From Yuukianura sp. NJ FZ-2021 (Eukaryota), in NCBI GenBank assembly GCA_046563655.1, contig CM102285.1, positions 7,130,001-7,194,000 of the forward strand: 64,000 bases of DNA. Reading direction: 5' to 3'. This document shows positions 21,351 through 62,790 of the stretch, piece by piece. Made by a program: the position numbers and the translations under genes. The notes under the pieces are model-generated. The model worked only from the letters and a program-made list of their open reading frames with translations, was not told the origin of the DNA and searched no databases. The stretch's first letter is position 1, and each line of letters starts with the position of its first letter.

Positions 21351-22267
21351 TAAATATGGCAGAAAGGGAACGAGCGCGGGAAGTGAAAGCATTTCTAAAG
21401 CTAAGGAAAGTCTAATGAGTGTTTTCTGTTCCAAAGCTTCTCAATTTACTGTAAATTCTTGACAGGCGGGAATTTTATTTCTTCCTCCTGCTTTCACTGC
21501 CTTCTCCACTGCTTTCACTACTTCCTTCGCTCATTCCAGGAAGAAGACAAATGCTTTCAGCCTCTGACTTATTGGAAGTCTAATCTAAAGGTACACGAAC
21601 ATGTTAAGGATCCAAGGCTTCTTCCGGCACGATCTCCAGATCACTTCCAGTGCACCATTCTTTACCTATTCAAAGGAATGGCAACCTACTTTCTCTTGTT
21701 TTTTAAAATAAAACACGCAACTCTGCTTTCCTTTAGCTTATTTTTTCAACAACAAACAGACTTTATTAGTGAAACAACGTGGAGTTGTGCAATAAGCATA
21801 AGTTGAAGTGGAAGCAACCGGAACGTTGTATGTAGGTAGATAAATTGTGCTTCAGACAAGGAGGAAACGGGAAAAAGTTTAGAAACTTCTGTTTTCGAAA
21901 TTCAATACTTCTTTTACTTTTAAATTTTAAGGAAAGAATTGGAAGAAAAAGAAGTTCAAATCAAATGGAAATCTGGTGGAGTTGTTACCCACAAATCCTA
22001 ACAATTGATTCTTCTCAGCAAATGACAAACAAAAAAAAGTTTCTTTGAGCTATTACTGGTTTCCAATTTCGAAGTTCCAAGATAACGTTTTCAAGCCTTA
22101 ATTGCGCACTTTAACTGTTTCGGCCTCAAAACGCTACCGGCTAACGTAACTCTGACAAATGTGCAACTCCACCAATCTGAGCGCTACAATCAAAACTTCT
22201 AGCCTAATGCACGTCTAAGTTTGTTAAACATGGTCTTAAATTTCTAGTTTTCTAAGCATCTTCAATT

Positions 22268-22644
22268 TGTTGTGAAGTAAACTCACTCTCCGGATTATGT
22301 TAACTATTAGTCTTTTGTTCTCTGCAAATCCTAGTTTTTGCACATGTAATCCAGTTAGAACTAGTTCTCTAAGTTAAAAATAGATTTTTAACCGTTAGTC
22401 TTTTGTTTTGTGCACAATGTAGTTTACATTAGATCTGCATGTAATTAACTCGGCGCGTGTCCGATGCCTATAAAAAGGGCTCGGCCGTGACCTCTCCAAT
22501 TCACTTCTAATCCAAATCTTAAACTTACCAGAACTCTGCCGGTTTGCACACCGACACGAGTTCAACAACCTCAAACTTTCTGAATAAAAGTTAATTCTAC
22601 TCCAGATAGCGAGTCAAACCGAGAATAACGTTTATTCCAGAACA
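22268..22644 (+). repeat. 5' LTR (377 bp)
   Basis: Direct repeat of 28527-28904. TATAAAAA at 22469, AATAAA at 22583. Confidence 0.97.
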
Positions 22645-22645
22645 T

Positions 22646-22657
22646 TGGTGGACGAGC
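22646..22657 (+). promoter_or_regulatory. Primer binding site (tRNA-Ala-like)
   Basis: TGGTGGACGAGC 1 nt after the LTR. Complementary to a tRNA 3' end ...CGUCCA-CCA, with U70 and A73 as in tRNA-Ala (inference). Confidence 0.7.
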
Positions 22658-22688
22658 TAAAACGACGACCTCGACCTCCACTTCCAAT

Positions 22689-23588
22689 ATGAATGATCTA
22701 ACTGAAACAAAACCCACCGGGTCCGCTTCGGCGTCGACCAAGGGTTTTGACCTTAAGGCGGTGGTCCGCTCGATCCCTCCGTTTGACGGAAGGACGAACG
22801 TTGACCTGTTGACCCTGAGGTGTGATGCATTATTGGCATCAGGTGCTGTGGACAGCAATTCGCTGATCCTGCACTTCCATCAATTGATGGAAGGCGAAGC
22901 ACTGGAATGGTGGCGTTGGTCACAGACCAAAATTCTAAGGGGATTGACCCCAAACAATGCAGACACAAAATGGAATGAATTAAAATATGCAATTAGGTCA
23001 TTCTATGACCCAGAAAACGTCAAAAATGACGCGAAAAAGAAACTCAAATCCATTTTGCTGCAAAACTGTGATACACCATCCGAGTACGTTGCAAAACGTT
23101 TAGCTTGCCTCTCGGTCATTGACCCTGACATGTCCGAAGAGAAGCAAGTTGAAAAACTCATCAAAGGCTTACCATATTCCATGAAAAACATGATGATTTT
23201 AGTTGACCCACAAAGTCCAGCTGAGTTTTTGCAAAAACTTCGCAAATGCGAAAAACCAAACTTTGCTGACAAGAGAGGTCAAAATCAAGGTCAAACTCCT
23301 GGTCAAAGTCAAAATGCACAATACAAAAACAAATCACATGCAAATTCTGGACAGCAATTAGACAATGGTAATTCCACAAACACAAAAGATTCCACTGTCA
23401 CAGGAACTTCAGAAACTGAAGTTGACAAACAGTCCAGTTTTCGCAAACGCAAATTTTGCAGTTTTTGCAAACGAAATGGACACACTTATGAAGAATGTTA
23501 TTCTAAGAATAGAGTAAAACCAGGCAGCACTTCATTTACATCTGTTGACACAACAGAACAAACAGAAACTTTAAATACAAAAAACTAA
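22689..23588 (+). CDS. gag: Gag (capsid region plus CCHC zinc knuckle), 299 aa
   Basis: IPPFDG, MEGEALEWW and KLIKGLP motifs. CX2CX4HX4C knuckle CSFCKRNGHTYEEC. Lies directly after the PBS. Confidence 0.93.
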   Translation: MNDLTETKPTGSASASTKGFDLKAVVRSIPPFDGRTNVDLLTLRCDALLASGAVDSNSLILHFHQLMEGEALEWWRWSQTKILRGLTPNNADTKWNELKYAIRSFYDPENVKNDAKKKLKSILLQNCDTPSEYVAKRLACLSVIDPDMSEEKQVEKLIKGLPYSMKNMMILVDPQSPAEFLQKLRKCEKPNFADKRGQNQGQTPGQSQNAQYKNKSHANSGQQLDNGNSTNTKDSTVTGTSETEVDKQSSFRKRKFCSFCKRNGHTYEECYSKNRVKPGSTSFTSVDTTEQTETLNTKN

Positions 23589-23631
23589 AAACACCGGGTG
23601 TATACGCTCACCCTATAGCAAAATCAGCGTA
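23579..23631 (+). promoter_or_regulatory. -1 ribosomal frameshift signal (slippery heptamer plus H-type pseudoknot)
   Basis: A AAA AAC (23579-23585) immediately before the gag TAA. pol is in the -1 frame and open from here. Stem 1 GGGTG (23596-23600)/CACCC (23609-23613). Stem 2 TACGCT (23603-23608)/AGCGTA (23626-23631). Confidence 0.8.
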
Positions 23632-26600
23632 CACATTAACTGCACAGGATGTAAACAAATGCATCCTTGGGCAAAACACCTTAGTATTTGAAAATTCAAA
23701 ATTTTCAAAAATTCAAACAAATCATACTACTAGCGACACCTACGCTAGTAAAGTAAAACAAAATTTAAATAAAAACAATCTTACGGATTCAATTCCGGAA
23801 ACTTCTGTTGAAGGAACAACAGTACCAGTACCTTTCCGAAAATGGAGGTACGGCCCAAAGGTCTTTACCGAACTCACGTTCGGTAACCAAACATACAAAA
23901 TACAAGTCGATGAAGGAGCAAACTTCAGCAGCATCGGCTTGGACTTTTTAAATGAACTCAAAGATTTTGTACATAAGAGGTACCAGATTTGCCCAGTGGT
24001 GGTCAACACAGCCAACAGTGAAACAAAAATTAATGAAATGGTTGAACTAAAGTTCACCTACAACAATGTTCTCACTGTATGGGGCTTTCACCTAATGAAA
24101 GGATTGAAGCCCAAAATGCTGTTAGGGACCGATTGGACAACTAGAAACCTCAATAAAAATGAAATTCCAACAATTAATGAAAATGTACCTCTGAATTTGC
24201 CAAAGGCTGAGGAAAATGCACCTCGGTTGAACAAATTCAAGTTAACAAAAACAATTAGGCTTCAACCAAAAATGAATTCGAGAATTACGGTGGAGTCTGA
24301 TCGAATTATTTCAGGTTCAGTAATACTGAATCCAAACAAGAAACTCAATGAGACACATGCCTTACTCCAACCATATGTGTACTCGACAGTCAGGGACTGC
24401 TGTGCAGATATATGGCTCACAAATCTAAACAATTTTCCTGTGACCTTATCAAAAGGCACAACAATTTGTTACGGTGAAGAATGTCCTCCTAACAAAAACT
24501 TGTATTACCTCACGGAAGATGGCGAGACCGTCGAATCCGAGGAATGCATGATTGGAAATTTTAATCCAAAATTAGGAGATAACCTAACAAATGAGGAAAA
24601 ATCTGAGATTACAAAAATAATTAATCAATATCCAATGCTCTTTGCTGAGGATGAAACGGATTTAGGAAAAACTAGTCTTGTTCGTCACAAAATTGACACT
24701 GGCGACAGTTTACCAATTCGTAGTCATCCGTATCGGGTCTCATACCCTCAAAGAAGCAAAATCAAAGAGAAAATCAACAAATTATTAGAAAGTGACATCA
24801 TTGAGGAGTCAATCTCTCCATGGTCATCACCTGTCATACTAGTACCTAAAAAGGACGGCAGTCACAGACTGGTAATCGACTATAGGAAACTCAATGCTAT
24901 CACTAAGAAAAATTCCTATCCTTTACCAAGAATGGATGACGCTTTGGATAGACTGTCTGGAGCAAAATATTTTACAGTCTTGGACTTACTGTCCGGATTT
25001 TACCAAATCGAGGTAGATCCAAAAGACAAAGAAAAGACTGCTTTTATCACTCCTGACGGTTTATTTCAATTCAAACGTTTACCAATGGGACTATGTAATG
25101 CTCCCTCTAGTTTCCAATATTTAATGGACTTGGTACTGATGAATTTAAAATGGAACATTGTACTTGTGTACTTAGATGATCTTGTTATTTGGGGTAGAAC
25201 CTTTGACGAGCATAAATACAGGCTGGTTACGGTTCTCAACCGACTTAAAGAAGCCGGATTAACCCTGAAAATTAGTAAATGCATCTTTGGGACAAGCAAA
25301 TTAAATTACTTGGGTCATATTATTTCAGAAGAGGGAATTCAGGTTGACCCCAATAAGACAAATGCAATTGAAAACTTCCCAATTCCGAAAAATCAAACGG
25401 ATGTAAAGTCATTTTTAGGAATGTGTGGCTACTACCGAAGATTTATTCAAAATTTCGGAAAAATAGCAATACCATTAAATACACTTCTAAGGAAAAATCA
25501 AACATTCCAATGGGGAGAAAAACAAAATTTGGCATTTCAAACACTGAAAAGTCATTTGATCAATAGTCCAATACTGGCTTACCCTATGGACAATGTACCT
25601 ACAGAAGTACACTGTGATAGTAGTGGGTATGGGGTTGGAGCAACCCTGGTTCAAATCCAAAATGGCAAACCCTGCGTCATTTGCTATGCAAGTCGAACTA
25701 TGAACGACGCAGAACGCAACTACTCGGCTTCCGAACAGGAATGTCTGGCTGTTGTCTATGCAGTTAAGAAATTTAGACCTTACATTTACGGTACTAAATA
25801 CACTGTGTACACAGACCATAGCGCCCTCAGGTGGTTGTTTTCTGTAAAAGATGTAAACAGTCGTTTAGCTCGATGGTCGATAACCTTGCAGAACCAAGAT
25901 ATGACCATCGTCCATAGACCGGGGAGGACTGCCAATGACGTTGACCCATTGTCAAGGTACCCAGTTGACCCACCAGAGAGTATGGACAGTTCGGAAGTCC
26001 TTGTTCTGGATGGAGTACCGGATTTATTTTCCAAAAAGGAATTAAAAGTCAAACAAAGATCTGACAATTTCCTAAGATCAATTATTTTGTACATTGAATC
26101 TGAGGAGAAAGGGGAAAGTAATATCCCAAGACCAAATGTAAAACAATTGGATCAATACAGTCTCCAAGAAGGAATTTTATTATTTCCAAATTTTGCGCCT
26201 TCTGGACACCAATGGAAAATTGTACTTCCAAAATGTTTACGAAAAATCGTATTCGATTCCCTACATGCCGGAGACCTAGCTGGTCACTCGGGCATTACTA
26301 AAACTTGGGATTTACTCAGAAGTCGTTTCTATTGGGTAGGAATGTACAGGGATACGAGAAAATACATTCTCGGTTGCCCCACTTGCCAAAAATTTCGAAA
26401 GCGAGTTGGCCCTGAATATGGTCTAATGCAAAGTTTTGACGATGTCACTCGTCCATTTGAACGCGTGGGAATTGATTTTGTTGGCCCTATAGTGACATCT
26501 AACGCTGGAAACAAGTACGCCATTGTTTTCATAGATCATTTCACTCGATACGTCGAAACACTCGCCATTCCTGCAGCTACGGCAGAGGAAGCAGTCAAGG

Positions 26601-27898
26601 CAATTAAATCCAAAATCATTTTCAAGCATTCCTTGCCGAAAGAATTTGTAACTGACAGAGGACGACAATTCATTTCAAATTTAGTGAAAGCGTCTGCGCA
26701 AGAATTCAGCTTTAAACTGAAATTTACAGCGCCATATCACCCACAAGCAAACGGGATGACAGAACGCTGCAACAAAACAATCAAAAAGTCAATTGCTAAA
26801 ACAGTTGACGAAAATCAGAAAAATTGGGATTTATGTTTGGACCGAGTAACTTTCAGTTACAACATCCAAAAGCATTGTTCTACTGAATTTTCGCCATTTT
26901 ACTTGGTATTTGGCAGAGAAGCTGTTTTACCAATTGATTTAGCACTGCCAAATTTCGATTCGGACCAAGAAATTGACTTGGAGAGATTACATGAAGCTAG
27001 ACATGAATCTCAACTGAATTCAAGGAAAAATCAGGAAAAATCCAAAGCTAGGGTCGATAAAAATCGAATTAAGAAAACTTTTAAGAAGGGCGAATTAGTT
27101 TTAAGATCAAAGCCAATTATCAAGAAAGGGCTTACAAAAGCATTTATTGCTCAAAAAGATGGTCCCTACAAAATTTTAAGACAAACGAGTGATGTTAATT
27201 TCGAAATTCAGAAATTAAATTCTCGTTCTAAAAAGTTAATTGTACATGTCAGAGACATTGAGCATTTTAACTCTGAATTTGTGCCCAGCTCTGATAGTGA
27301 GAGTGAAAGTGAAAGTGAAAGTAGCTTCACTGATCACTCGAAACAGAATCATCCATCAAAAAGCCAAGGACGCTACGTGCGACTCAGAGGGAAAGAAGGA
27401 AACTGCGCGAAATCGGCTAAGTCCGCCGATTCGTCTCACCCCTCAGTGTTTACTGATGTAAACAAACAAAATAGTCAAATTTCCTGCAGAGACACAAACT
27501 CGTCTGTTGGTAGTCAAATTAGGCAATTTAGTGCAAATTCAAACAAGAAAAGTTCAAGTCACGACATTAGTTCCAGTTATCGGTCATTGACTGGACATTC
27601 TGGACATTCAAAGTCACGTAGGAGCACTCCGCGTGCAAAAACACAAAGTGACAGTGACAGTGCCGATGACCCCAAGGCTATAAAAGAGCCTGAGGATGAC
27701 GAAGCAGTTGTCACTCCAGTTTCACCTTCATCATCTGAAGAAGAAGACCCGTCTCTTCTTGCTCCTGCCAAGCCAAAGGTCAACGACACAGCCACTCCAA
27801 GGAGAACTGGACGTACAAGGAAACCACCAGACCGTTATGGAGAGTGGACCTACTACAACGGACGTAGACGCAGAAGATGTTCATCTTCGTCAAATTGA
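23585..27898 (+). CDS. pol: Pol polyprotein (protease, possible degenerate dUTPase-like insert, RT, RNase H, integrase), expressed by frameshift
   Basis: Frame is open upstream of the tracked 23939 start. Protease IQVDEGA...LLGTDW. RT SPWSSPVILVPKKDG, LPMGL, YLDD. RNase H HCDSS, EQECLAV, YTDHSAL. Integrase HHCC, IDFVGP, TDRGRQF, NGMTER, GPY. Ser-rich tail ending RKPPDRYG. Confidence 0.96.
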   Translation, partial: LKTPGVYAHPIAKSAYTLTAQDVNKCILGQNTLVFENSKFSKIQTNHTTSDTYASKVKQNLNKNNLTDSIPETSVEGTTVPVPFRKWRYGPKVFTELTFGNQTYKIQVDEGANFSSIGLDFLNELKDFVHKRYQICPVVVNTANSETKINEMVELKFTYNNVLTVWGFHLMKGLKPKMLLGTDWTTRNLNKNEIPTINENVPLNLPKAEENAPRLNKFKLTKTIRLQPKMNSRITVESDRIISGSVILNPNKKLNETHALLQPYVYSTVRDCCADIWLTNLNNFPVTLSKGTTICYGEECPPNKNLYYLTEDGETVESEECMIGNFNPKLGDNLTNEEKSEITKIINQYPMLFAEDETDLGKTSLVRHKIDTGDSLPIRSHPYRVSYPQRSKIKEKINKLLESDIIEESISPWSSPVILVPKKDGSHRLVIDYRKLNAITKKNSYPLPRMDDALDRLSGAKYFTVLDLLSGFYQIEVDPKDKEKTAFITPDGLFQFKRLPMGLCNAPSSFQYLMDLVLMNLKWNIVLVYLDDLVIWGRTFDEHKYRLVTVLNRLKEAGLTLKISKCIFGTSKLNYLGHIISEEGIQVDPNKTNAIENFPIPKNQTDVKSFLGMCGYYRRFIQNFGKIAIPLNTLLRKNQTFQWGEKQNLAFQTLKSHLINSPILAYPMDNVPTEVHCDSSGYGVGATLVQIQNGKPCVICYASRTMNDAERNYSASEQECLAVVYAVKKFRPYIYGTKYTVYTDHSALRWLFSVKDVNSRLARWSITLQNQDMTIVHRPGRTANDVDPLSRYPVDPPESMDSSEVLVLDGVPDLFSKKELKVKQRSDNFLRSIILYIESEEKGESNIPRPNVKQLDQYSLQEGILLFPNFAPSGHQWKIVLPKCLRKIVFDSLHAGDLAGHSGITKTWDLLRSRFYWVGMYRDTRKYILGCPTCQKFRKRVGPEYGLMQSFDDVTRPFERVGIDFVGPIVTSNAGNKYAIVFIDHFTRYVETLAIPAATAEEAVKAIKSKIIFKHSLPKEFVTDRGRQFISNLVKASAQEFSFKLKFTAPYHPQANGMTERCNKTIKKSIAKTVDENQKNWDLCLDRVTFSYNIQKHCSTEFSPFYLVFGREAVLPIDLALPNFDSDQEIDLERLHEARHESQLNSRKNQEKSKARVDKNRIKKTFKKGELVLRSKPIIKKGLTKAFIAQKDGPYKILRQTSDVNFEIQKLNSRSKKLIVHVRDIEHFNSEFVPSSDSESESESESSFTDHSKQNHPSKSQGRYVRLRGKEGNCAKSAKSADSSHPSVFTDVNKQNSQISCRDTNSSVGSQIRQFSANSNKKSSSHDISSSYRSLTGHSGHSKSRRSTPRAKTQSDSDSADDPKAIKEPEDDEAVVTPVSPSSSEEEDPSLLAPAKPKVNDTATPRRTGRTRKPPDRYGEWTYYNGRRRRRCSSSSN

Positions 27899-28515
27899 CG
27901 AAGAAGTCTCACGTAAGGCGACTTTTGACCTTTACAGGTCATTTAAGTTCACGTCCGCACTCTCCATTCCATTCCCCAATTTCTACTTTTATTGTTCATT
28001 TCATCTCTAATATATTTTTCTTTTATTTTTTAGGTCAGATGAGGGAACTCCAGATGACACAATCTGCCCCGTCTCCAACCATCTCTACATCATCAACTAC
28101 TTCAGGATCCTCCACGGTACCGTTACTACTCAATGTCAACCCACCGGACGGAAGGACCGATTTTTCAAAGTGGAAAATCCCCAAGAAGAAGAAGGCTCCT
28201 ACCAATCCGGCTCCTACTAATCCGGATCCTCGACCAATTACCATCCGCCGACACGATAGACGACAGCACAACTTCCCCAGGATGAGCACTGCACTGCCCC
28301 CTCAAATCACGCAAGGTCAACCGAGGTCATCAGGACGTCCTATCGTCGTCCTCTCCGATCCGCGAGACCTGCGAGCAACTTTGAGGTCAATGGCCCCGGA
28401 ACATCCTCCGCGACATCGCCCAAAACCCTGCTTCATCTGCAGTCAAGTCGGCCACAAACGTAAGAACTGTCCGCTACTTCCAGTTTCTCGAAACTCAGGA
28501 GATTTTCCCAACTAA
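27837..28515 (+). CDS. ORF3: Pro/Arg-rich CCHC zinc-knuckle protein; predicted exons 27837-27912 and 28034-28515 (185 aa), or 158 aa from ATG 28039
   Basis: Donor AC|GTAAGG (27913), branch CTAAT (28007-28011), long T-tract and TAG| (28033). Splicing is in frame: MESGPTTTDVDAEDVHLRQIDEEVSR-QMRELQM. Contains KIPKKKK and CFICSQVGHKRKNC. Stop abuts the PPT. Confidence 0.7.
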
Positions 28516-28526
28516 CGGTAGGGAAA
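28516..28526 (+). promoter_or_regulatory. Short polypurine tract
   Basis: CGGTAGGGAAA immediately before the 3' LTR. Confidence 0.6.
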
Positions 28527-28904
28527 TGTTGTGAAGTAAACTCACTCTCCGGATTATGTTAACTATTAGTCTTTTGTTCTCTGCAAATCCTAGTTTTTGC
28601 ACATGTAATCCAGTTAGAACTAGTTCTCTAAGTTAAAAATAGATTTTTAACCGTTAGTCTTTTGTTTTGTGCACAATGTAGTTTACATTAGATCTGCATG
28701 TAATTAACTCGGCGCGTGTCCGATGCCTATAAAAAGGGCTCGGCCGTGACCCCTCACAATTCACTTCTAATCCAAATCTAAAACTTACCAGAACTCTGCC
28801 GGTTTGCACACCGACACGAGTTCAACAACCTCAAACTTTCTGAATAAAAGTTAATTCTACTCCAGATAGCGAGTCAAACCGAGAATAACGTTTATTCCAG
28901 AACA
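28527..28904 (+). repeat. 3' LTR (378 bp)
   Basis: Identical to the 5' LTR except about 3 differences (2 substitutions, 1 indel). Confidence 0.97.
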
Positions 28905-30588
28905 AATTGTTCACCACCTTGTTAAGTTTATCTAGAGTTTAGGCTAGAATAGGCTGAAATTTAGTACAGGTTATGCTATGAATAAGTTAATGTGCAAAGT
29001 TATTGCCTTGATGAAATATAATGGGGTCCATTGAAATGTTAGAGACGAAATCTCTATTATGCTTGATACTTTCATTGTGCCGAGTTAGGCACTTTTTCTT
29101 TCTTCGTCTCCGTGGGAGGTCAACAAAGTGCTTTTGTGATTTGTGAAACGTGAATGTGAGAGAAATGGGCGAAGGAGACAATGGAAACAGAGAAACAAAG
29201 ACTTTGATTAAGTACCTACGCACAAGGCTACTTTCTCTCCCTCGTGAAACTTTAAACTGACGACTGCATGCAACCCTACAATTGGTCAGGTTGAATAAAA
29301 TTGAAAATTAGCCGAATTTGAGTCTATGGTGGGATTAATTTACACCGGAGAGGGCAATAAACACTTCACTAAATTTAACCCAATAAACCTATACACCTTA
29401 GCGCGGTTAAGTTAGGGAGTTTAAATAACTCGCGCCTTTGCTTCAAGTTGTAAATTACAAAATTAAGTACCAATTCGCCACCTAAGCAATGTGAAATTTC
29501 TAGATTTTTTTGTGAAGACTTGTACACTAATGCATTCGTCTAGCCTAAGTAAGTTGGAATAACAAATTTTAATAGTCGAAGTTTTGGTACACTCATTTCC
29601 TGACTTAAAATTTCATGGCAAAATAAGAGCCAATAAAATTCCGAATGCGCAAAGGCGGATTGGCCTAAATTCGACGGTTCCACGGAATAGTCAATACCAA
29701 AATCCGTTCCAATAAAAATCGAGCTGTAGTGCGGCTTATTCTTTAGAGGATTTCCTCTGTCTCCAAACTGCATAAAAAAGGAACTTAGGAAGATTATCAG
29801 TAGCGAAATGTTGAAAGTGAAAGCTTCCTATCCTGCTCCATCTTTTTCAGATCCCCTTTCCAAAGCTACGCGTGACTCTGGATATGTTGTAAATTAAGAT
29901 CCATGAAGCAGCGAAGGACTTTAGCCAAAAAGGGGGATTTTGTATCTCCGAGCCCATTTTTATATTCAGCAAGATAAGTAAGTCTACATCTAAAAGGAAA
30001 GATGCGTGGGGGTAGTGAAACTCTAAGAATTTGTAACCAACCCCCCATTGAAGACATTTAGCAACACAATTCGTTGTTGTGTGTTTGGGAAACCAAAAGT
30101 CATTAAAGTTGGCTTTGCATCAACAAACCAAACCGAATACCTCCTCGACGGCTATGACGTCACTGCTATCCTACGTTTATATACTGACTTTTGGTTTAGT
30201 TATTGCTGCCAGGCGCCCATGCTTTCTTTACTTCTACCGAGAAAATTGTTGAAGAAAGTAATTCAATGGAATGAGGATGACTCAAAGATGCGTAAGGCTA
30301 TGCGACGAAGGACCCCAACGGAGTTTCCAAGAAGCGAACTGTGCTAGAAATCATCATCCAAGTACTCTGTCTCTCTGCCTAACGACTCGCAGAAATGAGG
30401 AAAGTAAACCAATCCCATAGGAATCAAATTCTGGCTCTCCCGATTCTTTTTGAAAACGAAAAGGTCACTCACCCCTTTACAGTTTAAGACTCACGTCGTA
30501 GACTGAGACAGAGGCAGCGATCAATGTCGTTATTCTTAACCAACTAACACCACCTACAACGCAGTAGTAAACGAAAAAAAGGGTTGAC

Positions 30589-31872
30589 TTATGGAAAGGT
30601 GCAGAGGAGGTCAAAGAGTAAGGAAAGCGTGCTGTCCGCAACAGTAGCGACGATACGTTTCTCGATTTCGTAGAAAGATCCTGCGAAGCACCGAACTTCT
30701 GGCGATGATCGCAAGAACATTCGGAGAGCTTGGCGGTCCTCAGCCGAAACAAGCTGTGATGCTGTGAAGTCCACTAAGGCGCAACGGTACTCTGAACCGA
30801 CAGCGCTCAAGGTACTCATTACTAGAATTAGCACGAGAACTTCATACATGCAGCGTATTGCGCAGACCGGAAACATCACGTTGGATAACGGGTCGTTTGG
30901 CCACCATATTTTGATGAGGCCGTAGATCAGGACCCCGCCAGCAAAGACGTAGATGTTGACCAAGATCGAGAGGTACCAGACAAAAGACCTATTCAACATG
31001 GCTATCATTGCTTGAACGAACCGGAACCGCAGGGCTATTGTGTTGTAGCCGTCATTGAATGACGTTCTATTGACAACATGAAAATACTTTGGATTAGCCG
31101 GATTAGGTTATTTGCGCAGTAGTTTATTTGTAATAACCTTATTAACCTTACTTCATGTCTTCAAGTTCACCAATGAACCAGTTGCAGCCAAGGTAGATGT
31201 TTGAGAAGTTGAACCAAATGCTAGCGCTGACAAGTAGCATTATGTAGTACTCAGGAAGAATGAAGGGCCACACTTCGCCTACTGGTAGGAGCCACAAGTT
31301 GAATCCGTCGCAATCCAAGAAGTAAGACGACAGAAAATGAACAGCGCATGGCGCTTCGTTCACCAACTTTGCATGAAAGGGAGCGTTCAGGATGAACATC
31401 ATTAATACGATCCACATTCTCCCTGTAAGGACGCGAGATTCTTGCCCTAATATTAATTTTGAGTTTAGTTACTAAAGTTATTGCAAGTTTAAAGAACTGT
31501 CGCTGATGCCTTACGTTTCACCACTGCAGATTCCAGGTGCGCCATCAAGATGTTTGTAAATGCCATCATGTCATCTCTTCCACTATGAAACTGGATGTAG
31601 TTAATTGCACAGAAGACATGCATGCCGGCGTACGTGAGAGTAATCATCGTGAGCCCGCCCGGTGGGTTGAGCTTCTCGACTGACCACAGGAGACGGCCAA
31701 ATGTCATGAACGGGATGACCCAGGCGACAGATTTGTGAACATTAAAGGCCCAGTAAGAATTCGGCTTCACGAGTCTGTTTGTCTTTATGTCGTACCGAAA
31801 CGGATAAATTCTTAGAAAACATGGAATGAATAAACTTATACGAAATGCTTCAAGTGTTACTCGATTAAGCAT
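30589..31872 (-). CDS. Gustatory-receptor-like 7TM chemoreceptor, 368 aa; exons 31872-31515, 31422-31152, 31066-30589
   Basis: Three hydrophobic ORFs join in frame across GT-AG introns (phases 1 and 2). N-terminal IYPFRYD. C-terminal CFAGSFYEIEKRIVATVADSTLSLLFDLL resembles the TM7 region of arthropod GR-superfamily proteins. Confidence 0.8.
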
Positions 31873-34734
31873 TTTTGTTGGTCTTGCAATCCTTCTTGAA
31901 CTTAAGCTTTTGGTTTCTCAAATCCTAATGACAACCAAATTTTAAAAACGTTAGAAACTAAAACCGAAACAAGAAGATTATATTAATGATCTCAACTCGT
32001 TCTCGTCTAAGTTTAATTTAAGGCCAAAAAGCAAAAGCACCCACGGATTATTGCTACCAAAAATTCAAATGCTGTTATATAGTATACTCAACCTTGTCTA
32101 AAGACATTAATACATGAAGTATTCCGTCCTAATAGTACCAGCAATTGGCATGGTTGTAAAAAAATCGAACTCACTTTTGATTAAGTCAAAACTTCTAATG
32201 ACGATGGTTACTTACATAGGAATGTATGTTACAATCGGCAGCACACCGTTGATTCAAATAAATTAGTTCAAATAAAATGGGTAAACACTAATTGGTTCAA
32301 TATGCAAATTGCTTCAACGTTAATAGTTCAAAACCAAATAGTTGAATGAAAAAATTGGTTCCAAAGCTACCGTAAATTACTCCAATGCCAGTGCGGTTAG
32401 GGCGGGGTCAAGGTGTGATATAAGCGCGGTAGCCAACTTGACCTTAAAACAGAACTTAGAGATAAATGGTATCACCTCTTTAAATTCTATATTGCTAATT
32501 TGATTCAAATCAAGCTGTAGCACTTAAATCCATGTTTTAAAAAAGGCGAAACCAGAAAGTAGGTTGTAAGTTAAAAGCCGTTCAGTACGCTACTACTAAT
32601 ATCACCGATGGTACCACAGCTCTGTTTGGAAAATTACCGAGTTCGGTTGGCTGAAGGATAAACATAAAATTTGTAAGAATTTATAAACTTAGGATTACCA
32701 CTCGTGAGTTTGCTTTATTTGAGTGGCTACTGCAAAATGAAAAGGTGGAATGATAACAAAAAACCAAAACGGCTTCATGGCACTGAATTTTTGAAGCGCA
32801 ATGTCCTCAGTTGAGAGACGGAAAACTTCATTGGCTCAACACAATCCAAATTCGCTAGTTCGCCTAAAAGTTGTTAAATTTGTTATTTACATTTCCCAGT
32901 TGGAATTTTCGTATTCGCGATTTTGGAAGTTCCAACCTGGCAATTTCTAACAAAATTTCCAAACCATACATTATTGAAAGACTAGAGATAGCCCAGAAGG
33001 CTTTGAATAAAGCAACAGTACCACAAACGACGAAACGAATCAGTATAAATTAAAAGTTAGCGTCAGATTTAAGATAGCACTTTTTAATTATTCCGGTAAT
33101 ACGTAGAACTTTAGTATATGCGCGCGCGTCCGAAAGTTCAAGAATTCTTATACGCGCGCATATAATTAGAGCATATACGGTAATCAAATTCCGAAACACC
33201 GTGGTCTTCAAAAATAACGGACAATAGTATTTTTAGCTTAGGCATCATGGTACATTTGGTTGTATTTTTTGAAACGTCCCAAACTCAACTCTGATACCGT
33301 AGTGATACCGTAGATGAGTTCAGTTGTGAGGTCCAAAAACCGACTCCGAAGGAAATTTTGAAATGTTTGCGTTGCAAATTTTGAAGAATCGAAGTATATC
33401 GTCTATGATGTACGTTAATTGTTTTTAAAAGTAAGATTTTCCCATCAAGAGTATATAAGCAAAAAATAATGAAATGTTAGGTTATCAATCGTAGGATTGG
33501 TTAGATTAAGCAACTAGATTAGGTAGTAGAGGAACACTTTGGCCAGTAGTTTTCTGCTACATCAGTTTTTCCTCTAATGTAAAATGCTATGAGCTTCATT
33601 CTGAAGTAGATTTTTTTTAAAATTGCGCATTGCATTGAATCATTTGGTTTTGAAATAAGGTTAGGTTACCAGATTTGCTTGTTGGGCCAATTCGGTTTCA
33701 ATGTTTTTACCTGAACCAATGGCATTGAACCGTTACGAGGTAGGTTATATTAGCGTTTCGGAAAATGATACAATTAAAGAGGAAAGAAAATACCGGAGGA
33801 TTTATAGGACTTCGCCGCGTGGCGATTCTCGGACTCATATTATTTACCATAGAATTTTGTTTCCAATTCAAAGAAAGTTGAGTTTCCTTACTCAATTTAA
33901 CTAAATCTTTTGTTGGTGTAATTATTTCACAACTTATTGAAGGTTTCACAACTCATCCAAAGGTTTTTGGGAAAAGAATTCGTCTTTTATGGAAAATATG
34001 ATCCGAGATGGCAGGTGATCCTGTAATACTTTCATCCAATTGAAGAATTTAAAAAAGCCGAATATTTAAATTTCATGTCCATCCTACCAATTTCCCCACA
34101 TTCCACCGAATTATATAGTTCGGTCAACCTCATCCACCAATCGGCGGGAACTATCTTCCCGTAAGAACCAATTTCTACTTGGATTCAAATAAAGTCATTG
34201 CGAAAATAAGATTTGTTCTGAATTCTTTCCCCAAAAAGCAAGCAAATGAATTCTAAATTATAAACGATTCAAAAAACATCGATACCTCTTGTAACTACTC
34301 GTTTGTCACATTATGTAAATTTTATGTCAAAAATAAAATATTGTGAAAATTCCACAACTTTAGTGGAATAAAAAGAAGACAGCAAATAAAACACAATTTT
34401 CAAATGGAAAAAAAAACAGGACACACAAACAGGATTTGATTCAATTTTAGTTTTCAGTTGATCAAATTACCTTGTAATCATTCCAAAATATATTTTCAGC
34501 AAAAACACACCACTGCTGCGTGTTTCTTTTTCTTGCAACTTTTGGTGTATTGCTCATTTACTTCATGGGAATGAAAAGATCAGTGGGTTTGAAGAGTTCT
34601 CAGAGTTGTTTGCTTCAACCTTCGTAGAATTTTGAATTATGAAATCAGAACGTGAAAGATGACTTTGACTCGCGCGTGTCTTTAATCTCATAGCCTCCGG
34701 TACACCCTAGCTTCTCCCCGGTGTTTTATTTTAG

Positions 34735-43700: not shown

Positions 43701-44856
43701 ACAGAGGGACATAAATCTTCTCGTTGAAGGAGAAACCTCTTGATCTGGCAAATACGATCTGGCATCTTCTTTGTCTTTGTCTCTTTTACACCATTTCACT
43801 GAATCGGATTTTTCACAAAAATCCACATGTTACTTGACACAACCAAAGAAGAGGAAGAACAGGCAGAAAGTGGCCGTGCCTGTGGAATAATTTCCTTTCT
43901 CAAAAAAGGAAGAGCACTTTTCTGTTTGAAATCTCCAAGTCCATATAGAGTTAAATGATACCTATATAACGAATGGAATAAAAATTGAAACTTAAAACGT
44001 TAATTAAAAGGATTACGCAGTTATACGTGGAATGTCTAAATGCAGAAAAATGTAAAATTCAGTCCTGCTAAACTGAAACGCGAGTACACAGTGCTGCCGG
44101 GTGAGGGGAATATTTGGAGTCTAGAAAGGAATTGATTTTTACTTTAACGAGAGCTTGTGGAGCAAATTATTTTTAAAAAAGTTGTGGAAGGATTAGGATT
44201 ATGTTAGGTTGCATTCGGTTTAGCGGCTGATGGCTGATTAAAGGTCAGAGGTCAATGGAGCAGAGTCGGGAAATCAGGCAAGCCAGGAGTCGTTAATGTC
44301 TTTTTTTTGTGAAAAATGGGAAAGTGAAATTGAATTTAGAATTCCGCAAGTGGTTCTAATGCTTTCACCTGAGCTTTCTCGCCTCTACATCACCGGGGAC
44401 CTTAGTTCTAGTCGACAGAAGAGAAACGACTCAATTAATACCACGACATGGTACTTGCGAACACACAAATTCCACATTCTCCAAATGTATCTGCAGGTTG
44501 CCTAGATTCAGCTTGGAGTTGCCAAGCGAATGCTGTTCAGGTTCACAGTGAATTGGTATGGAGGGATATTAGTAGCAAAACTAATTAACTTTTCCCCGCC
44601 AATAAACGTTTCCCGAATTAAAAGGTTACCTTTCGCGAATTAGTTTTATTGGCGAAAACTTAATTCGGGAAAGTTTAATTCGGGAAAAGTTAATTCGGGA
44701 AAAGTTAATTTGGGAAAAGTTAATTCGCGAAAAGTTAATTCGAGAAAAGTTAATTCGCGAAAAGTTAATTCGGGAACAGTTAATTCGCGAAGGCTTTGTT
44801 TCCGTAAGCTTTTTTCTCGCGAATAGATTTCACAAAAATACTCAGGGATGATACCG

Positions 44857-45828
44857 GGCACCTGTAATATATGGGCACCCGAATAATGTCATATTTATTT
44901 CTAACGTTATGTGAATTAAATTAAACTAATTTCAAAACTAATTAAAATCTCCAATTATTTTTAATTAATATTTATCACACTTAGTTTATCATTTAATTAA
45001 CTTATAATACATTAGTTTTTGAATTTCATGTTGCCCATGTATGTTGTGGACGTTGTGACATCGTGAATGACTTTTTCATTTACCATTTTGTTTTGAAATC
45101 ATATAAAAACAAGTTCTTAGGTCTCAAACCAATTTAACCAATTTAAATTAAGTTTAAGTTTCTAAGTTGAAGTCAGGTGCCTGGTCTCTAGAATGACATA
45201 TCGATTTTTGTCGTGTTTTTGAGCTTAACCACACACTCAAACATAATGCAGTATATCAATTAACTTTTCAGAGCAGCAAACTTGAATAATTATTTGGACA
45301 ACCGCATTGCGGCTTTACCCGACTGTCCCCGGACTGTTAATGCTGAGGGAAATGAAGTCTACGACATGTAGGAGGATGTGACCGACACTGACTCAGTAAT
45401 TTTCATTGCGAATCCATCATTCAATTAGGGGGCCCTTTTTGCCTTTTTATTAGGGTTGCCTCAAGTACATCAACCAAAAATCAACATGACTTTCTAAAGA
45501 CCAGGCACCTGACTTCAACTTAGAAACTTAAACTTAATTTAAATTGGTTAAATTGGTTTGAGACCAAAGCACTTGTTTTTATATGATTTCAAAACAAAAT
45601 GGTAAATGAAAAAGTCATTCACGATGTCACAACGTCCGCAACATACATGGGCAACATGAAATTCAAAAACTAATGTATTATAAGTTAATTAAATGATAAA
45701 CTAAGTGTGATAAATATTAATTAAAAATAATTGAAGATTTTAATTAGTTTTGAAATTAGTTTAATTTAATTTACATAACGTTAGAAATAAATATGATATA
45801 ATTCGGGTGCCCATATATTACAGGTGCC
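44857..45828. mobile_element. Nested foldback element, family unassigned
   Basis: Ends GGCACCTGTAATATATGGGCACCCGAAT / ATTCGGGTGCCCATATATTACAGGTGCC. About 340-bp near-identical inverted arms. CG on both sides. Confidence 0.85.
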
Positions 45829-45830
45829 CG

Positions 45831-47451
45831 CCCAAGTAGCAAAGTTACTTAGATGCGATTTGGATTCTATATAGTTTCAACTCGTTGTCTACAAAGAATC
45901 TGGGTAGAATTTGTCGGAATCGATTTCGAATCCGTCCTGCTTCTACCCCGTATCTTGCCAGATATGGTCAGGAATTTGATGAGATTTCACTTAGACTGAA
46001 AGTTGGAAATCATTTGGATTTCTCAGAGACGTTCCTGCTCCAATCCGAAATAGTCTATATATAAAATACGGTATTCCTGAATTAAAATTCTAAAAATTGC
46101 AACTTCAGATTAAGACGAACAAGTTAAGTTTATTTTTCGGAACGTAAAAATAAAGTGCTTGAGAATCTAAATGTAAAACTTAAGTATCGTTTTTTACGTG
46201 CTGATATCTTCAGGTAGTGTCTCGGGAGGCGCAGCATTGTCCTTTGCAGTAGTTTCCAACCTGGACAGCACGGATTTAATTAATTACAAATAAAAATTTT
46301 CAAAATTTTTACGTCAGGGAATTATTCTCACCGCTTCAATCGTTTATTTTCTCGGTCTCCTTCTTTTACAAGCCAGCATATTGCCATATCCTCCTTCACG
46401 GTCTGCTTTACCCCACCGCCTACCGCATCTGAAACAAATGTGTGCGTTAAAACTAATACATATCTTGGGTTTAAAGTTGTACATTGAAACTTAAATAACT
46501 TGGGTTTAAAGTTGCACATACCTACCTTTGATATTGATCCAAATATTAACAAGATCCAAAGGAACCTGTACTTCTCACGACGCCCGAGATAGCTGAATCT
46601 GCAACCAAGACTGTCATCAAAAATACGTCGCATAATCCTGTCGAACACTTCCTCGTCATTCTTCCCTCCAAATGACTGCAAGTAGGTTGTCTGAATATCG
46701 ATAAAATTGAAACTTATTAAGTACTGAGTTTAGGCAATGTGATTAAATTATTTTAGAAAAATTATGTAAGATTGCGGTTCTATTTACACTTACAAATTCC
46801 TTTCGAATTTCGTCGTCACCCAATTTCTTCTCTAACTTAAGAAGGATCATGCGCTTCTTATTTGGCGAATTCGGAACCTTATCCAGCACACATCCTAATG
46901 CTTGAGCAGAACTTTGAGGTTGATTAGCCGATGATAAGAAATTTGATGAAACTGAAATTTCAGAATACTGTCGGTCTCCTGTCCATCTTCATCAGTGGAA
47001 GAGTTGAAATAACTACTTTTACTCACGTTTAACAAGCTTACGACCAACGTTTTAAGGGATGCTGTACTGAGAATCAAGTCTAATTACTCAATATTAAACT
47101 AAAGAACTGAATCTTTACTAATCGTTAGCAACTCAGCAACAAACTTAGTGGAGAAGGATTTTGATTTTAAAATGTGTCTTTGAGACAGTGCTGAGAGTGA
47201 CACTGATAACGGTTCTGAGACTTGCCGAAACGATTCGGGATGGATTCTACCAAGCTTCTGAGAAGCTAGAATGTTCCCCTAGTAATCCGGCAAGACTAGT
47301 CTAACCAATATCTGGCAAATCTTGTACAAAGATAAAAACTAAGAAATCAACATAGTTTCTTGCTGGAATCTCTGAAATTTTCCAAATATAGAGTTCATAT
47401 CACCGTTTCCCTTAAAAATCTACAGAGACTCGGGCAACTCTGCTACTTGGG
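45831..47451. mobile_element. Nested CCC-type EnSpm/CMC-like non-autonomous element
   Basis: TIR CCCAAGTAGCA / TGCTACTTGGG. 2-bp CG flanks (45829-45830, 47452-47453). Carries a DUF4806-like gene remnant. Confidence 0.75.
46328..46894 (-). pseudogene. DUF4806-like transposon accessory gene remnant (spliced)
   Basis: EKKLGDDEIRKEF, then a GT..AG intron, then TTYLQSFGGKNDEEVFDRIMRRIFDDSLGCRFSYLGRREKYRF and AICWLVKEGDR. Matches the GG..RIM..F...FS..G...K..F...WL....DR pattern as I recall it. Confidence 0.6.
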
Positions 47452-48534
47452 CGGTATCATCGCTGAGTATTTTTGTGAAATCTATTCGCGAGAAAAAAGC
47501 TTACGGGAAACAAAGCCTTCGCGAATTAACTTTTCCCGAATTAACTTTTCGCGAATTAACTTTTCCCGAATTAACTTTTCGCGAATTAACTTTTCGCGAA
47601 TTAAACTTTCCCGAATAAACTTTTCCCGAATTAAACTTTCCCGAATTAAAATTCTTCCCGAATTAAGTTTTCGCCAATAAAACTAATTCGCGAAAGGTAA
47701 CTTTTTTAATTCGGGAAACGTTTATTGGCGGGGAAAAGTTAAATAGTTTTGCTACTAATATGCCTCCATAAATTGGGACGGTTTTGCTTTCTGGCATATT
47801 GGTCTTTTCATCCAGAACTAACCAAAGACCGCGGAATCGGATCCTCCAGAATCCAAGTAAGCATTTGACAGTAAATGCAATGTTTAAAATTGGAAGAAAT
47901 GATAAAAAAATGCACCATTTGTATCTATCTGAATCAGTAGAAGTGCAGACCAAAACTCAACGCATGGATTCTAAAAAATTACACTAGAACTACTCTAATA
48001 AAGGTGTAGTAAACAAATTCTTCAATATACATACATTTTTCCGATATCCTCATTGGTTACAGCCTAGTGTTGCTGGATATCCAGTTTTCGACTTTTCATC
48101 TATGGCGGGATATCCAATGGACGAAATGGACAAAATCAGTGAATCCAAAGCAGCGAAGCTTTGCCCGCGAGATATGAACAATTTGAAAATAAAGAACGGA
48201 AAGAAATCAAAAACCTACCAAAATATCCGCAAATCGTGCTAAAAAAAAGTTCTAATAACAAAACTAATTAAGCAAGAGTGGTTTAATAATTAAATTATCT
48301 CATAATCCTTAATTTGAATTGCTATGCTACTGATATTCAACTTGCGTGTGAAACGGTTTAGGTTAGGATTTGAGTTGTTGGCTGATTTTCGTAATATTGT
48401 TGAAACATTAAAATGAAGCATAGGTCCAAGGTCCGCTGAAATACTACAGATATCTATACGTTTGAAATTTTGAAATGAATTTTGAAGCTTCTAAATATAG
48501 CTGTAAACGGGTGAGCCAAGAAAAGTCTAAAAAA

Positions 48535-55214: not shown

Positions 55215-55910
55215 CAGGGTGTACCACCAGAAAGGAAACGCTCGAAAACTAATTTCTTTGTTTATTTGATCGAATATGAGGGGGAAACCGTAGCAAATAT
55301 TAGGAAAAAAACCTAAACATTTTTTACTGTGAACCAGACCGTGCTAAGTCCCTTGAGTAGAAAATTTTTTACTGTGAACCAGACCTTGCTAAGTCCGTTG
55401 AAGAGAAAATTTTTTACTGTGAACCAGACCTTGCTAAGTCCGTTGAAGAGAAAATTTTTTACTGTGAAATACACATTGCTAAGTCCGTTGAGTAGAAAAT
55501 TTTTTACTGTGAACCAGACCTTGCTAAGTCCGTTGAAGAGAAAATTTTTTACTGTGAAATACACATTGCTAAGTCCGTTGAGTAGAAAATTTTTTACTGT
55601 GAACCAGACCTTGCTAAGTCCGTTGAAGAGAAAATTTTTTACTGTGAAATACACATTGCTAAGTCCGTTGAGTAGAAAATTTTTTACTGTGAACCAGACC
55701 TTGCTAAGTCCCTTGAAGAGAAAAATTTTTACTGTGAACCAGACCTTGCTAAGTCCGATCGAACGATCAACGGGTCTTGCAGAAATTAAAAAAAATTTTT
55801 TTTTAATGCTCGTTATTATTGAGTACGTTTTCCCCTCCATGTTTACAAGTTTTTGTTAAGTTGCTCATAGCAACGAATTTTTGGCGTTTCCTTTCTGGTG
55901 GTACACCCTG
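55215..55910. mobile_element. Tc1/mariner-type MITE nested in the Spy-like element
   Basis: TA|CAGGGTGTACCACCAGAAAGGAAACG ... CGTTTCCTTTCTGGTGGTACACCCTG|TA. Removing it restores the right arm of the host element. Confidence 0.9.
55315..55757 (+). repeat. 45-bp minisatellite, about 10 copies, alternating variants
   Basis: Unit AAATTTTTTACTGTGAA(CCAGACC/ATACACA)TTGCTAAGTCCGTTGA(AGAG/GTAG)A. Confidence 0.92.
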
Positions 55911-60996: not shown

Positions 60997-61697
60997 CTTC
61001 GAATACAAAACGAAAACAGAAATAGCAGCGTAGATCCTGCAAAATCCGGAACTTTAAACAAATTTAATGCCGCAGGTCAGAGTTGAAGTTCGGAAATTGG
61101 AGCCAATGGAGGGCCCCGAGAATGCGAAGCTTTTGAACAAAAGGAAAACTCGGTTTTCTAAAAGAGAAAGTTCGTTGAGTGAAAGTCAGGCACGGCACGT
61201 TACACTTGAGCCAAGATAATGATAACCTTTGACCTCTACATTTCACATTGCCTAAATCGGCCACTATTTTGATTTAATAAAATGATGACGCAATTTACGA
61301 CGTGAAAGGCTTATTGAAGTGAAATTTTATTTACAAAGTCTCGTTACATGAATAAGTTTTGGAGGAAGACCATTAGAGCGTAATTGAATTACAAGTTGAC
61401 ATTCATTGAGAGTGCTGTGTGCCTCCATTGAGTCCAATTTTGTCTTTCTCAAAAAGGGAAAGCACGCCGCGTTCCTTTTCAGTTTGTGTGAACACAATTG
61501 TGGTAGTAGCAGGAAATTGGTCGAAAAGGTTTGCATAGAAGTTATTTTTAAAAGGGAAAGCAAGTTCCTCGGGTTCTATTCAAATCGTCGCGCCGCACCT
61601 AACTCCCCTCTTTTTGTTACCCGCCATTCAAAAGGGGCTAGTTCCATTCAAATCTAATTGGCATTCATGTCCAGTAAAACCAGCGTCTTTTTACATA

Positions 61698-62408
61698 CTG
61701 TCCCTCAGAAGCTATAAACGACCCTCTGGAAATGAGGAATTATGGCGGCTTGTCAAAAAAATCGGTCCACAAAAATAAAAGTCACCGTTTTTCAGTAAAG
61801 CGGTTTTCCTGCCACAGATTGTTCAAAATTTTTATTCTTTCACAATTTCGACCTTTGTTTCAAAATTTTGAACATATTTTTTCAAAATTTTGAAGTTTTT
61901 TTTCAAAATTTTGAAAAAAGTCCAAAATTTTTGAAAAAAGTTAGTTTTTGAAAAAAAGTTGAAAATTTTGAAAAAAGTTGAAAATTCTGAAAAAAGTTGA
62001 AAATTTTGAAAAAAGTTGAAAATTTTGAAAAAAGTTGAAAATTTTGAAAAAAGTTCAAAATTTTGAAAAAAGTTCAAAATTTTGAAATAACTTCAACATT
62101 TTGACAAAAAATGTTCAAAATTTTGAAAAAAAAGTTCAAAATTTTGAAAAAAGTTACAGTTTTTGGAAAAAGTTCGAAATTTTGGAGAAAGTTCAAAATT
62201 TTGAAAAAAACTTCAAAATTTTGAAAAAATATGTTCAAAATTTTGAAACAAAGGTCGAAATTGTGAAAGAATAAAAATTTTGAACAATCTGTGGCAGGAA
62301 AACCGCTTTACTGAAAAACGGTGACTTTTATTTTTGTGAACCGACTTTTTTGACAAGCCGCCATAATTCCTCATTTCCAGAGGGTCGTTTATAGCTTCTG
62401 AGGGACAG
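61698..62408. mobile_element. TA-flanked foldback MITE with central ~20-bp AAAAAAGTT(C/G)AAAATTTTG array
   Basis: TA|CTGTCCCTCAGAAGCTATAAACGACCC ... GGGTCGTTTATAGCTTCTGAGGGACAG|TA. Near-perfect arms of about 200 bp. Confidence 0.85.
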
Positions 62409-62790
62409 TAAGTAAAGTATAAGTAAAGTATTTTTTATGAAAACTTTACCTCCACCTTGTACATCACTGTACATATTTGAGGAAATGTTTGTAACGTTTC
62501 CTTTACGTTTCCGTTTGCACGATTGCGTGTTTCAGATTCCGTTTTTAGGCTGATTTGCAGTCAAAAATATGTCAAGTGACAAAGACAGTATGTTATGAAA
62601 TTTTGAGTGTCATAAGCAGACCTGTGAGAAGAAAGGGGAATTTTTTTAAGGACTTATTTGTCTTTAATAAGTTTTAAAATCTTTAAAATGTTTTAAAAAC
62701 TTTTTTCGCTCTTTTTTCTTTATCGAAAATCAGGTAAAAACTGGAAATTTGGGTCAACAAATGCAATCTGGTCAGAAATTTCTTCATTTT

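Follow-up and report, generated by a model that had tools for sequence, protein, structure and literature searches.

A zinc-knuckle third open reading frame, probably preceded by a short intron, in a young-looking Ty3/gypsy retrotransposon of Yuukianura sp.

A gene carried beyond gag and pol by a long terminal repeat (LTR) retrotransposon is generally presumed to be env. In the insect gypsy errantiviruses (gypsy, ZAM, and Idefix), env is the third open reading frame (ORF) and is expressed from a spliced RNA. Here, we analyzed a stretch of 64,000 nucleotides (nt) of the Yuukianura sp. NJ FZ-2021 assembly (GCA_046563655.1, contig CM102285.1, positions 7,130,001 to 7,194,000 of the forward strand; hereafter “the window,” with all coordinates counted from its first letter), which contains a complete Ty3/gypsy (Metaviridae) LTR retrotransposon at positions 22268 to 28904 on the plus strand. 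Between pol and the 3′ LTR of this element lies a third open reading frame (ORF3) that appears to encode a small, basic zinc-knuckle protein rather than an envelope. As a whole explanation, we lean modestly toward ORF3 being a real gene behind a genuine 121-nt intron, with a nucleocapsid-like nucleic-acid-binding product and spliced expression; taken by itself, the proposition that ORF3 is a functional gene seems reasonably likely.

The features on which this reading depends are as follows.
27837 to 27912, plus strand: proposed first exon of ORF3, from ATG to splice donor, putatively coding, in the +1 frame relative to pol; its peptide differs in an intron-less contig.
27913 to 28033, plus strand: proposed GT-AG intron of 121 nt, with GTAAGG, CTAAT, a T-tract, and AG, and with joints in DNA copies.
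28039 to 28515, plus strand: body of ORF3, from the first internal ATG to TAA, 158 amino acids (aa), isoelectric point 11.5, 52% P/S/T/R/K, predicted to be disordered.
28429 to 28470, plus strand: CCHC zinc knuckle CFICSQVGHKRKNC, followed by Pro, with exact CX2CX4HX4C spacing.

A previous sequence-only reading of this DNA had described a gypsy element carrying a third open frame with a basic KIPKKKK stretch, Pro/Arg-rich low complexity, and a zinc knuckle, devoid of env-type features and preceded by splice signals, and we recovered each of these elements. The gypsy assignment is borne out by the LTRs, target site duplication (TSD), primer-binding-site (PBS)-like sequence, polypurine tract, gag, and a pol with reverse transcriptase (RT), RNase H, and integrase; every feature of the third frame lies where it had been placed; the frame has no transmembrane (TM)-like segment, and its Pfam matches are to zinc knuckles only; and the donor at 27913, the CTAAT, the T-tract, the AG ending at 28033, the 121-nt interval, and the in-frame junction are all present.

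The zinc knuckle is the feature that most clearly sets ORF3 apart. Only 1 of 20000 shuffles of the nucleotides of this region produced the CX2CX4HX4C motif, which, judged on sequence, is strong evidence that ORF3 exceeds chance. In phmmer searches, the knuckle aligned with those of multi-knuckle proteins, and it aligns with knuckles of TUT7, ZCCHC4, and the nucleocapsid protein (NC) of HIV-1. The resemblance to retroviral and retrotransposon NC extends beyond the spacing to an aromatic residue after the first Cys, a Gly-His pair, basic flanks, and a disordered basic protein around the knuckle, with the difference that NC is part of Gag, whereas ORF3 is a separate gene 3′ of pol in an element whose gag already has a knuckle of its own. 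The Lys run (KIPKKKK) is nuclear-localization-like. We found no signal peptide, TM anchor, or fusion features in the ORF3 product, whose maximum 19-residue hydropathy of 0.59 leaves it with no transmembrane-like segment, and a Pfam scan revealed no enzymatic domain; by its sequence, then, the product is a non-envelope protein. An AlphaFold2 single-sequence model (pLDDT 56.8, pTM 0.17) predicts disorder except for one short helix at residues 108 to 118. Outside the element, a further CX2CX4HX4C motif (CFKCYSIKHFCWSC, 31846 to 31887, plus strand) has no Pfam support nearby and could be left over from the gag of a different retroelement or could have arisen by chance.

Immediately upstream of the ORF3 body, the signals expected of an intron are found together. 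The donor reads CAC/GTAAGG, with the first intron G at 27913; a branch-like CTAAT lies at 28006 to 28010; and 17 of the 20 letters 5′ of the AG at 28032 to 28033 are pyrimidines. Excision would join the frame of ATG 27837 to that of ORF3 through a codon shared by 27912 and 28034 to 28035. The acceptor at 28033 has the best polypyrimidine tract among the 353 AG sites of the element, and only 14 of the 3549 AG sites on the plus strand of the window are as good. The donor ranks 3rd of 256 GT sites in the element by a rough donor matrix, and GTAAG occurs only twice in the element.

Support at the level of DNA comes from other copies of the element. Contigs of X1 to X4 (X1 and X3 from organism A, X4 from organism B, a related organism) show a multi-copy family in the two organisms; the differences and joints described here are the best-supported ones, with 1709 further differences and 18 further joints across the element. 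In one X4 contig, 27 letters that bridge positions 27877 and 28034 form a diverged version of 27878 to 27912, and because the last 9 of these letters are identical to the last 9 exon-1 letters of the window, the junction falls at 27912/28034 and this copy lacks exactly positions 27913 to 28033. Its depth of 6.8 is similar to that of the contig that carries the empty target site (7.4). Contigs of X1, X2, and X4 align as far as 27917 and resume at 27998 or 28010 (joints 27917 to 27998 and 27917 to 28010), such that these copies keep the donor and the branch, T-tract, and acceptor while the intron interior is unalignable among them. Furthermore, a 1-nt C insertion behind 28031, found in two contigs each of X1 and X2 and in one of X3, and representing a large share of the depth in each, yields TTTTTTCAG; continuous coding through 28031 would therefore be broken in those copies.

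The simplest reading of these copies is that the intron is real and is sometimes spliced out of RNA that is later reverse-transcribed. A 121-nt insertion would also explain the intron-less copy, yet its first letters would by coincidence have to be GTAAGG and its last ones a T-tract followed by AG, and we consider it much less likely. Overall, the interval from 27913 to 28033 is quite probably a genuine intron. The sequence-only reading had deduced it from signals that on their own are suggestive, and to these can now be added the intron-less copy, the conserved ends, and the indel at the acceptor. Its accompanying proposal, that packaging of unspliced RNA alone keeps the intron in place, fits less well with an intron-less DNA copy, which suggests occasional reverse transcription of spliced RNA. 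The alignment of other copies that it had put forward as a check gave a divided answer: the listed differences in ORF3 are synonymous and the intron ends are kept, but the exon-1 peptide is not conserved and some copies have a joint inside ORF3.

The ORF3 frame is open from stop to stop over 27868 to 28515 and thus across the whole proposed intron, and it lies −1 relative to pol as pol lies −1 relative to gag. These properties would suit a scheme with no splicing at all, in which ORF3 is expressed from unspliced RNA through the continuous frame, either as a pol-ORF3 fusion produced by a second −1 frameshift in the 31-nt overlap or from ATG 27877, which would give a hydrophobic, anchor-like ISTFIVHFISNIFFFYFLG. 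The T-tract does encode a hydrophobic 19-mer (hydropathy 1.69), but any T-tract reads as Phe/Leu/Ile. No heptamer of the form X XXY YYZ occurs in 27868 to 27898, unlike at the gag/pol junction with its A AAA AAC, and the insertion behind 28031 together with the unalignable interior (27917 to 28010) is at odds with a coding sequence there. In addition, a conserved pol motif, R.RKPP.RYGEW (27810 to 27860, residues ∼1420 to 1437), aligns, in related pol proteins, with the very end of the C-terminus (best match P0048, E value of 6.7e-6; also P0034, P0041, P0114, and P0015), and for this reason we take pol truly to end 5′ of the donor at 27913. We rejected the frameshift fusion given the missing slippery heptamer and the indels among copies, and we rejected the TM-bearing ORF from ATG 27877 given the same indels; expression without splicing is very improbable.

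If the intron is real, the question becomes which RNA carries ORF3 and where its translation begins. Neither ATG 27837 nor ATG 28039 is reachable by scanning on full-length RNA, and a subgenomic RNA is therefore needed. The sequence-only reading had chosen the ATG at 27837 to 27839, which indeed overlaps the end of pol in the +1 frame; its use as the ORF3 start is somewhat doubtful. Its frame is open over 27684 to 28010, its context is good (G at −3 and G at +4), 25 open codons lead to the donor, and the junction is in phase. Three findings count against its use: the letters of the ATG belong to the Tyr and Gly codons (cgt-tAT-Gga) of RYGEW, a conserved pol motif; the only listed variant in exon 1, at 27859, is synonymous in pol but replaces Thr with Met in the exon-1 frame; and the intron-less contig has 8 nt fewer ahead of the junction, whereby another upstream frame meets ORF3 and only the last residues agree. 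ATG 28039 lies 6 nt 3′ of the acceptor and has a poor context, with C at −3. On balance, we slightly favor ATG 28039 over ATG 27837 as the ORF3 start, and we would put use of the latter at less than even.

The same observations bear on an alternative in which ORF3 is real and its upstream exon is noncoding. The acceptor at 28033 would then be joined to a donor in the leader or early gag, in the manner of the subgenomic env mRNA of errantiviruses, or an internal promoter would be used, with translation starting at ATG 28039 and the donor at 27913 serving only occasionally or cryptically. The closeness of ATG 28039 to the acceptor, the derivation of ATG 27837 from conserved pol codons, the unconserved exon-1 peptide, and the Thr-to-Met variant would all be accounted for. 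A donor-like CAG/GTGCTG at 22843, early in gag, is in phase with the acceptor at 28033, and according to PMC5408684, spliced messages are the typical means by which the ORF3s of LTR retrotransposons are expressed. On the other side, there is no good donor 5′ of the gag ATG (best score of −0.78 by a rough matrix), the context of ATG 28039 is inferior to that of ATG 27837, and the intron-less contig joins the donor at 27913, not a leader donor, to 28034. We regard this alternative as somewhat unlikely.

More elaborate still would be a program like that of complex retroviruses, in which a dedicated mRNA, with a small exon from 27773 or 27837 to 27912 and the 121-nt intron, gives rise to a second, free-standing nucleocapsid-like regulator acting in trans. 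Its mRNA would start at an internal TATAAAA (27679) or would arise by double splicing through an acceptor at 27772. The latter, with 17 of 20 pyrimidines, ranks second among the polypyrimidine/AG sites of the element; it lies 65 nt 5′ of ATG 27837 and together with the donor at 27913 would bound a 140-nt internal exon. The TATAAAA at 27679 to 27685, the only one on the plus strand between the LTRs, lies 158 nt 5′ of ATG 27837 in a context like that of the LTR TATA box, with no ATG between ∼27710 and 27837, and could serve as an internal promoter; across the window, TATAAAA occurs at chance frequency (27 observed versus 27.6 expected). The product might act in trans on the export or packaging of unspliced RNA or on transposition dosage, in the manner of a truncated-Gag inhibitor. 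If true, such a program would represent an accessory-gene class undescribed for Metaviridae, but we think it unlikely.

A separate observation concerns the organism-B contig that lacks the intron, where the pol frame followed from 27877 reads through the junction and stops at a TGA overlapping ATG 28039 (ATGA). Such a stop-start overlap could permit coupled translation, a suggestion that rests on 27 letters and an assumed frame.

Several results weigh against the interpretation of ORF3 as a spliced gene. The region is 34% C, and a run of 159 open codons appears in 76 of 2000 dinucleotide shuffles of 28034 to 28526, so that in this C-rich stretch the open frame alone is weakly significant evidence (for the longer frame, 27899 to 28526, 12 of 2000 such shuffles reach 204 open codons). 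The knuckle matches PF00098 (zf-CCHC) at an E value of 8.2e-4 and 19.8 bits, below the gathering cutoff of 20.8 bits. One contig each in X1 and X3 has a joint from 28361 to 28467 that skips 105 nt (35 codons) inside ORF3 and would delete the start of the knuckle in some copies. GTAAG and a strong acceptor occur 40 to 300 nt apart in 19 pairs on the plus strand of the window, several of which share a donor or acceptor; such pairs are thus not rare, and splice signals alone are only suggestive. Only one contig, of low depth and from the other organism, represents the intron-less copy; its run type is presumed to be DNA, and its frame 5′ of the junction differs from the exon-1 frame of the window. 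Lastly, no homologue of ORF3 was found beyond the knuckle in 1.84 billion protein representatives (phmmer; 9 matches, all within residues 116 to 154), and hence there is no evidence of conservation beyond the family of the element itself.

Other searches agree with this last result. A word-index search scored none of its 83 candidates, a back-translated scan of genome contigs found ORF3 in 0 of 213 stretches, and BLASTP against 120 listed pol relatives returned gag-knuckle matches only. The look-alikes of ORF3 in the Atlas are gag/CCHC clusters (scores of 0.76 to 0.79) and serve as leads only. Related loci were found in 0 of 5 cases among viral contigs and, in a search with pol, in 0 of 39 cases among genome contigs; among metagenome contigs, there was one related locus, of 36% identity, on a contig that ends 250 nt past pol and is uninformative on ORF3.

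Another alternative is that ORF3 is a nonfunctional relic, either a decayed gag/NC or a captured host knuckle, within the 3′ untranslated region, which would still be open only by virtue of the youth of the copy and the C-richness of the stretch, with splice signals that are fortuitous or otherwise used. In favor of such a relic, the open frame is only modestly unlikely, homologues are found for nothing but the knuckle, some copies have the 105-nt joint, the other two plus-strand frames over ORF3 contain only 3 and 4 stops in 160 codons, the predicted structure is disordered, and the ORF3 N-terminus (28039 to 28165) has a weak collinear similarity to the gag N-terminus (22689 to 22800), including PP.DGRT and an identical 11-nt word. 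ORF3 and the gag of the element align by BLASTP at an E value of 0.011; the local score is reached by 0 of 500 shuffles and the global score by 1 of 500. The gag relationship nevertheless failed profile tests: ORF3 scored −3.1 against a hidden Markov model of 21 gag-family sequences, a value equaled or exceeded by 728 of 1000 shuffles, and hhalign gave a probability of 0.76% and an E value of 0.074, and we therefore rejected a gag origin of ORF3 as unsupported. Also contrary to a relic, the knuckle is intact and canonical, and the frame stops (28513 to 28515) directly before the purine tract, 11 nt 5′ of the 3′ LTR (28527). The differences among copies that are listed inside ORF3 (28179, 28294, and 28470) are synonymous in the ORF3 frame in 3 of 3 cases, compared to 1 of 3 and 0 of 3 in the other two plus-strand frames; the probability of 3 of 3 by chance is ∼0.04, in a small sample selected as the best-supported differences, a caveat that belongs with the points against a gene. 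Copies share the ends of the intron, and one of them is precisely without it. We consider the relic quite improbable.

Under the explanation that we prefer, a spliced ORF3 gene, the 121-nt intron would be removed to produce the ORF3 mRNA, which would be translated from ATG 27837, via the short upstream exon, or from ATG 28039. The product would be small, strongly basic, and disordered, with a single C-terminal knuckle of the retroviral type, and hence would be nucleocapsid-like and not an envelope. From its knuckle, charge, and disorder only, we infer that it may bind the RNA or cDNA of the element as a chaperone or as a helper in packaging, export, or dosage. The roles put forward in the sequence-only reading, namely RNA export, packaging, or anti-silencing, are likewise conjectural.

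The position of ORF3 between pol and the 3′ LTR, with a strong 3′ splice site just upstream, is that of errantivirus env, and expression from a spliced RNA would therefore be expected. ORF3 is unlike errantivirus env in being a 158-aa basic, disordered knuckle protein with no signal peptide, TM anchor, or fusion features, and its intron is unlike the errantivirus leader-to-env splice in being short (121 nt), with a donor that follows the pol stop. Closer in kind are the LTR retrotransposons of bdelloid rotifers, which, according to PMC5408684, have non-env ORF3s of GDSL esterase, DEDDy exonuclease, coiled-coil, and TM types, and thus likewise exemplify gypsy-like elements that have acquired diverse, family-specific third genes other than env. 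Unlike those ORF3s, the present one has no enzymatic domain, and the text of the same paper contains no mention of CCHC, zinc knuckle, or intron. Introns and splicing within LTR retrotransposons are described in PMC3735527 for Ogre (between ORFs), CRR, BARE1 (a 104-nt intron), and copia, where splicing regulates the expression of gag and pol. As in these elements, a short canonical intron is kept in the genomic copy, which in the published cases is excised from a share of transcripts; the difference is that those elements are from plants or Drosophila, whereas in the present element, whose nearest named pol relatives are arachnid, the intron separates pol from an accessory ORF.

Given that non-env ORF3s and introns of LTR elements are already known, what is new here is the proposed combination of a nucleocapsid-like accessory gene in third position with a short intron of its own. 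Within the collection of open-access papers that we searched, no account of a CCHC knuckle in a gypsy ORF3 came up. Instead of the env that might be assumed, ORF3 would be a second, separately encoded zinc-knuckle protein; if expressed, it would be an instance, in an invertebrate gypsy element, of a spliced accessory gene for RNA binding in the style of retroviruses. This would be relevant to the balance of spliced and unspliced RNA in retroelements and to the origin of accessory genes before, or alongside, the capture of env. If spliced genomic RNA is sometimes reverse-transcribed, the copy that lacks the intron would be a natural DNA record of splicing.

The element that hosts ORF3 has the following further features.
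22264 to 22267 (5′ copy) and 28905 to 28908 (3′ copy), plus strand: TSD AATT; in contigs with the empty site, 22263 is connected to 28905 and 4 letters are shared.
22268 to 22644, plus strand: 5′ LTR, 377 nt, TG...CA, with TATAAAA at 22469 and AATAAA near 22584.
22647 to 22658, plus strand: PBS-like sequence, beginning TGG, 2 nt beyond the 5′ LTR, as read from the sequence.
22689 to 23588, plus strand: gag, 299 aa, with Retrotrans_gag (PF03732, E value of 2.3e-7) and one CCHC knuckle at 23457 to 23498.
23579 to 23585, plus strand: slippery heptamer A AAA AAC, in the gag frame directly 5′ of the gag stop, from the sequence and frames.
23549 to 27898, plus strand: pol frame, 1449 codons from stop to stop, with TGA at 27896 to 27898, RT, RNase H, integrase, a Ser-rich tail, and the conserved C-terminal motif.
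28517 to 28526, plus strand: polypurine tract GGTAGGGAAA adjoining the 3′ LTR, as read from the sequence.
28527 to 28904, plus strand: 3′ LTR, 378 nt, TG...CA, a direct repeat of the 5′ LTR.

Pol, which is in the −1 frame relative to gag, is presumably reached by −1 frameshifting at the A AAA AAC heptamer. Its Pfam matches, in residues, are RVT_1 (432 to 592), RT_RNaseH (684 to 782), Integrase_H2C2 (894 to 951), rve (967 to 1065), and Integrase_p58_C (1205 to 1234), and the order RT, RNase H, integrase is that of gypsy elements; the Pfam scan of pol gave no protease family at an E value of <0.1. The nearest pol relatives, at 57%, 51%, and 50% identity, are on ENA and JGI contigs from metagenome assemblies, and those relatives with names are arachnid sequences. 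For gag, one homologue was found, at 48% identity.

The retrotransposon looks young and active. The empty target site, with 22263 joined to 28905 and AATT shared, is present in contigs of X1 and X3 (organism A) and X4 (organism B), from which it follows that the insertion is recent and polymorphic; consistent with this, the two LTRs differ at 3 of 378 aligned positions. No other copies of the element were found within the window.

The rest of the window is repeat-rich and has no recognizable host gene. Outside the element, none of 114 ORFs with a length of 75 aa or more has a convincing Pfam family, and scans for Rfam families and tRNAs were empty. A pentapeptide-repeat Pfam match at 47336 to 47677 is probably a repeat artifact. 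Large inverted repeats include 356-nt arms at 44855 to 45830 and arms at 44.6 kb and 47.6 kb (region 44590 to 47736), and there are tandem arrays of a 45-nt unit at 55226 to 55847 and of a 19-nt unit at 61895 to 62265 (region 61690 to 62416).

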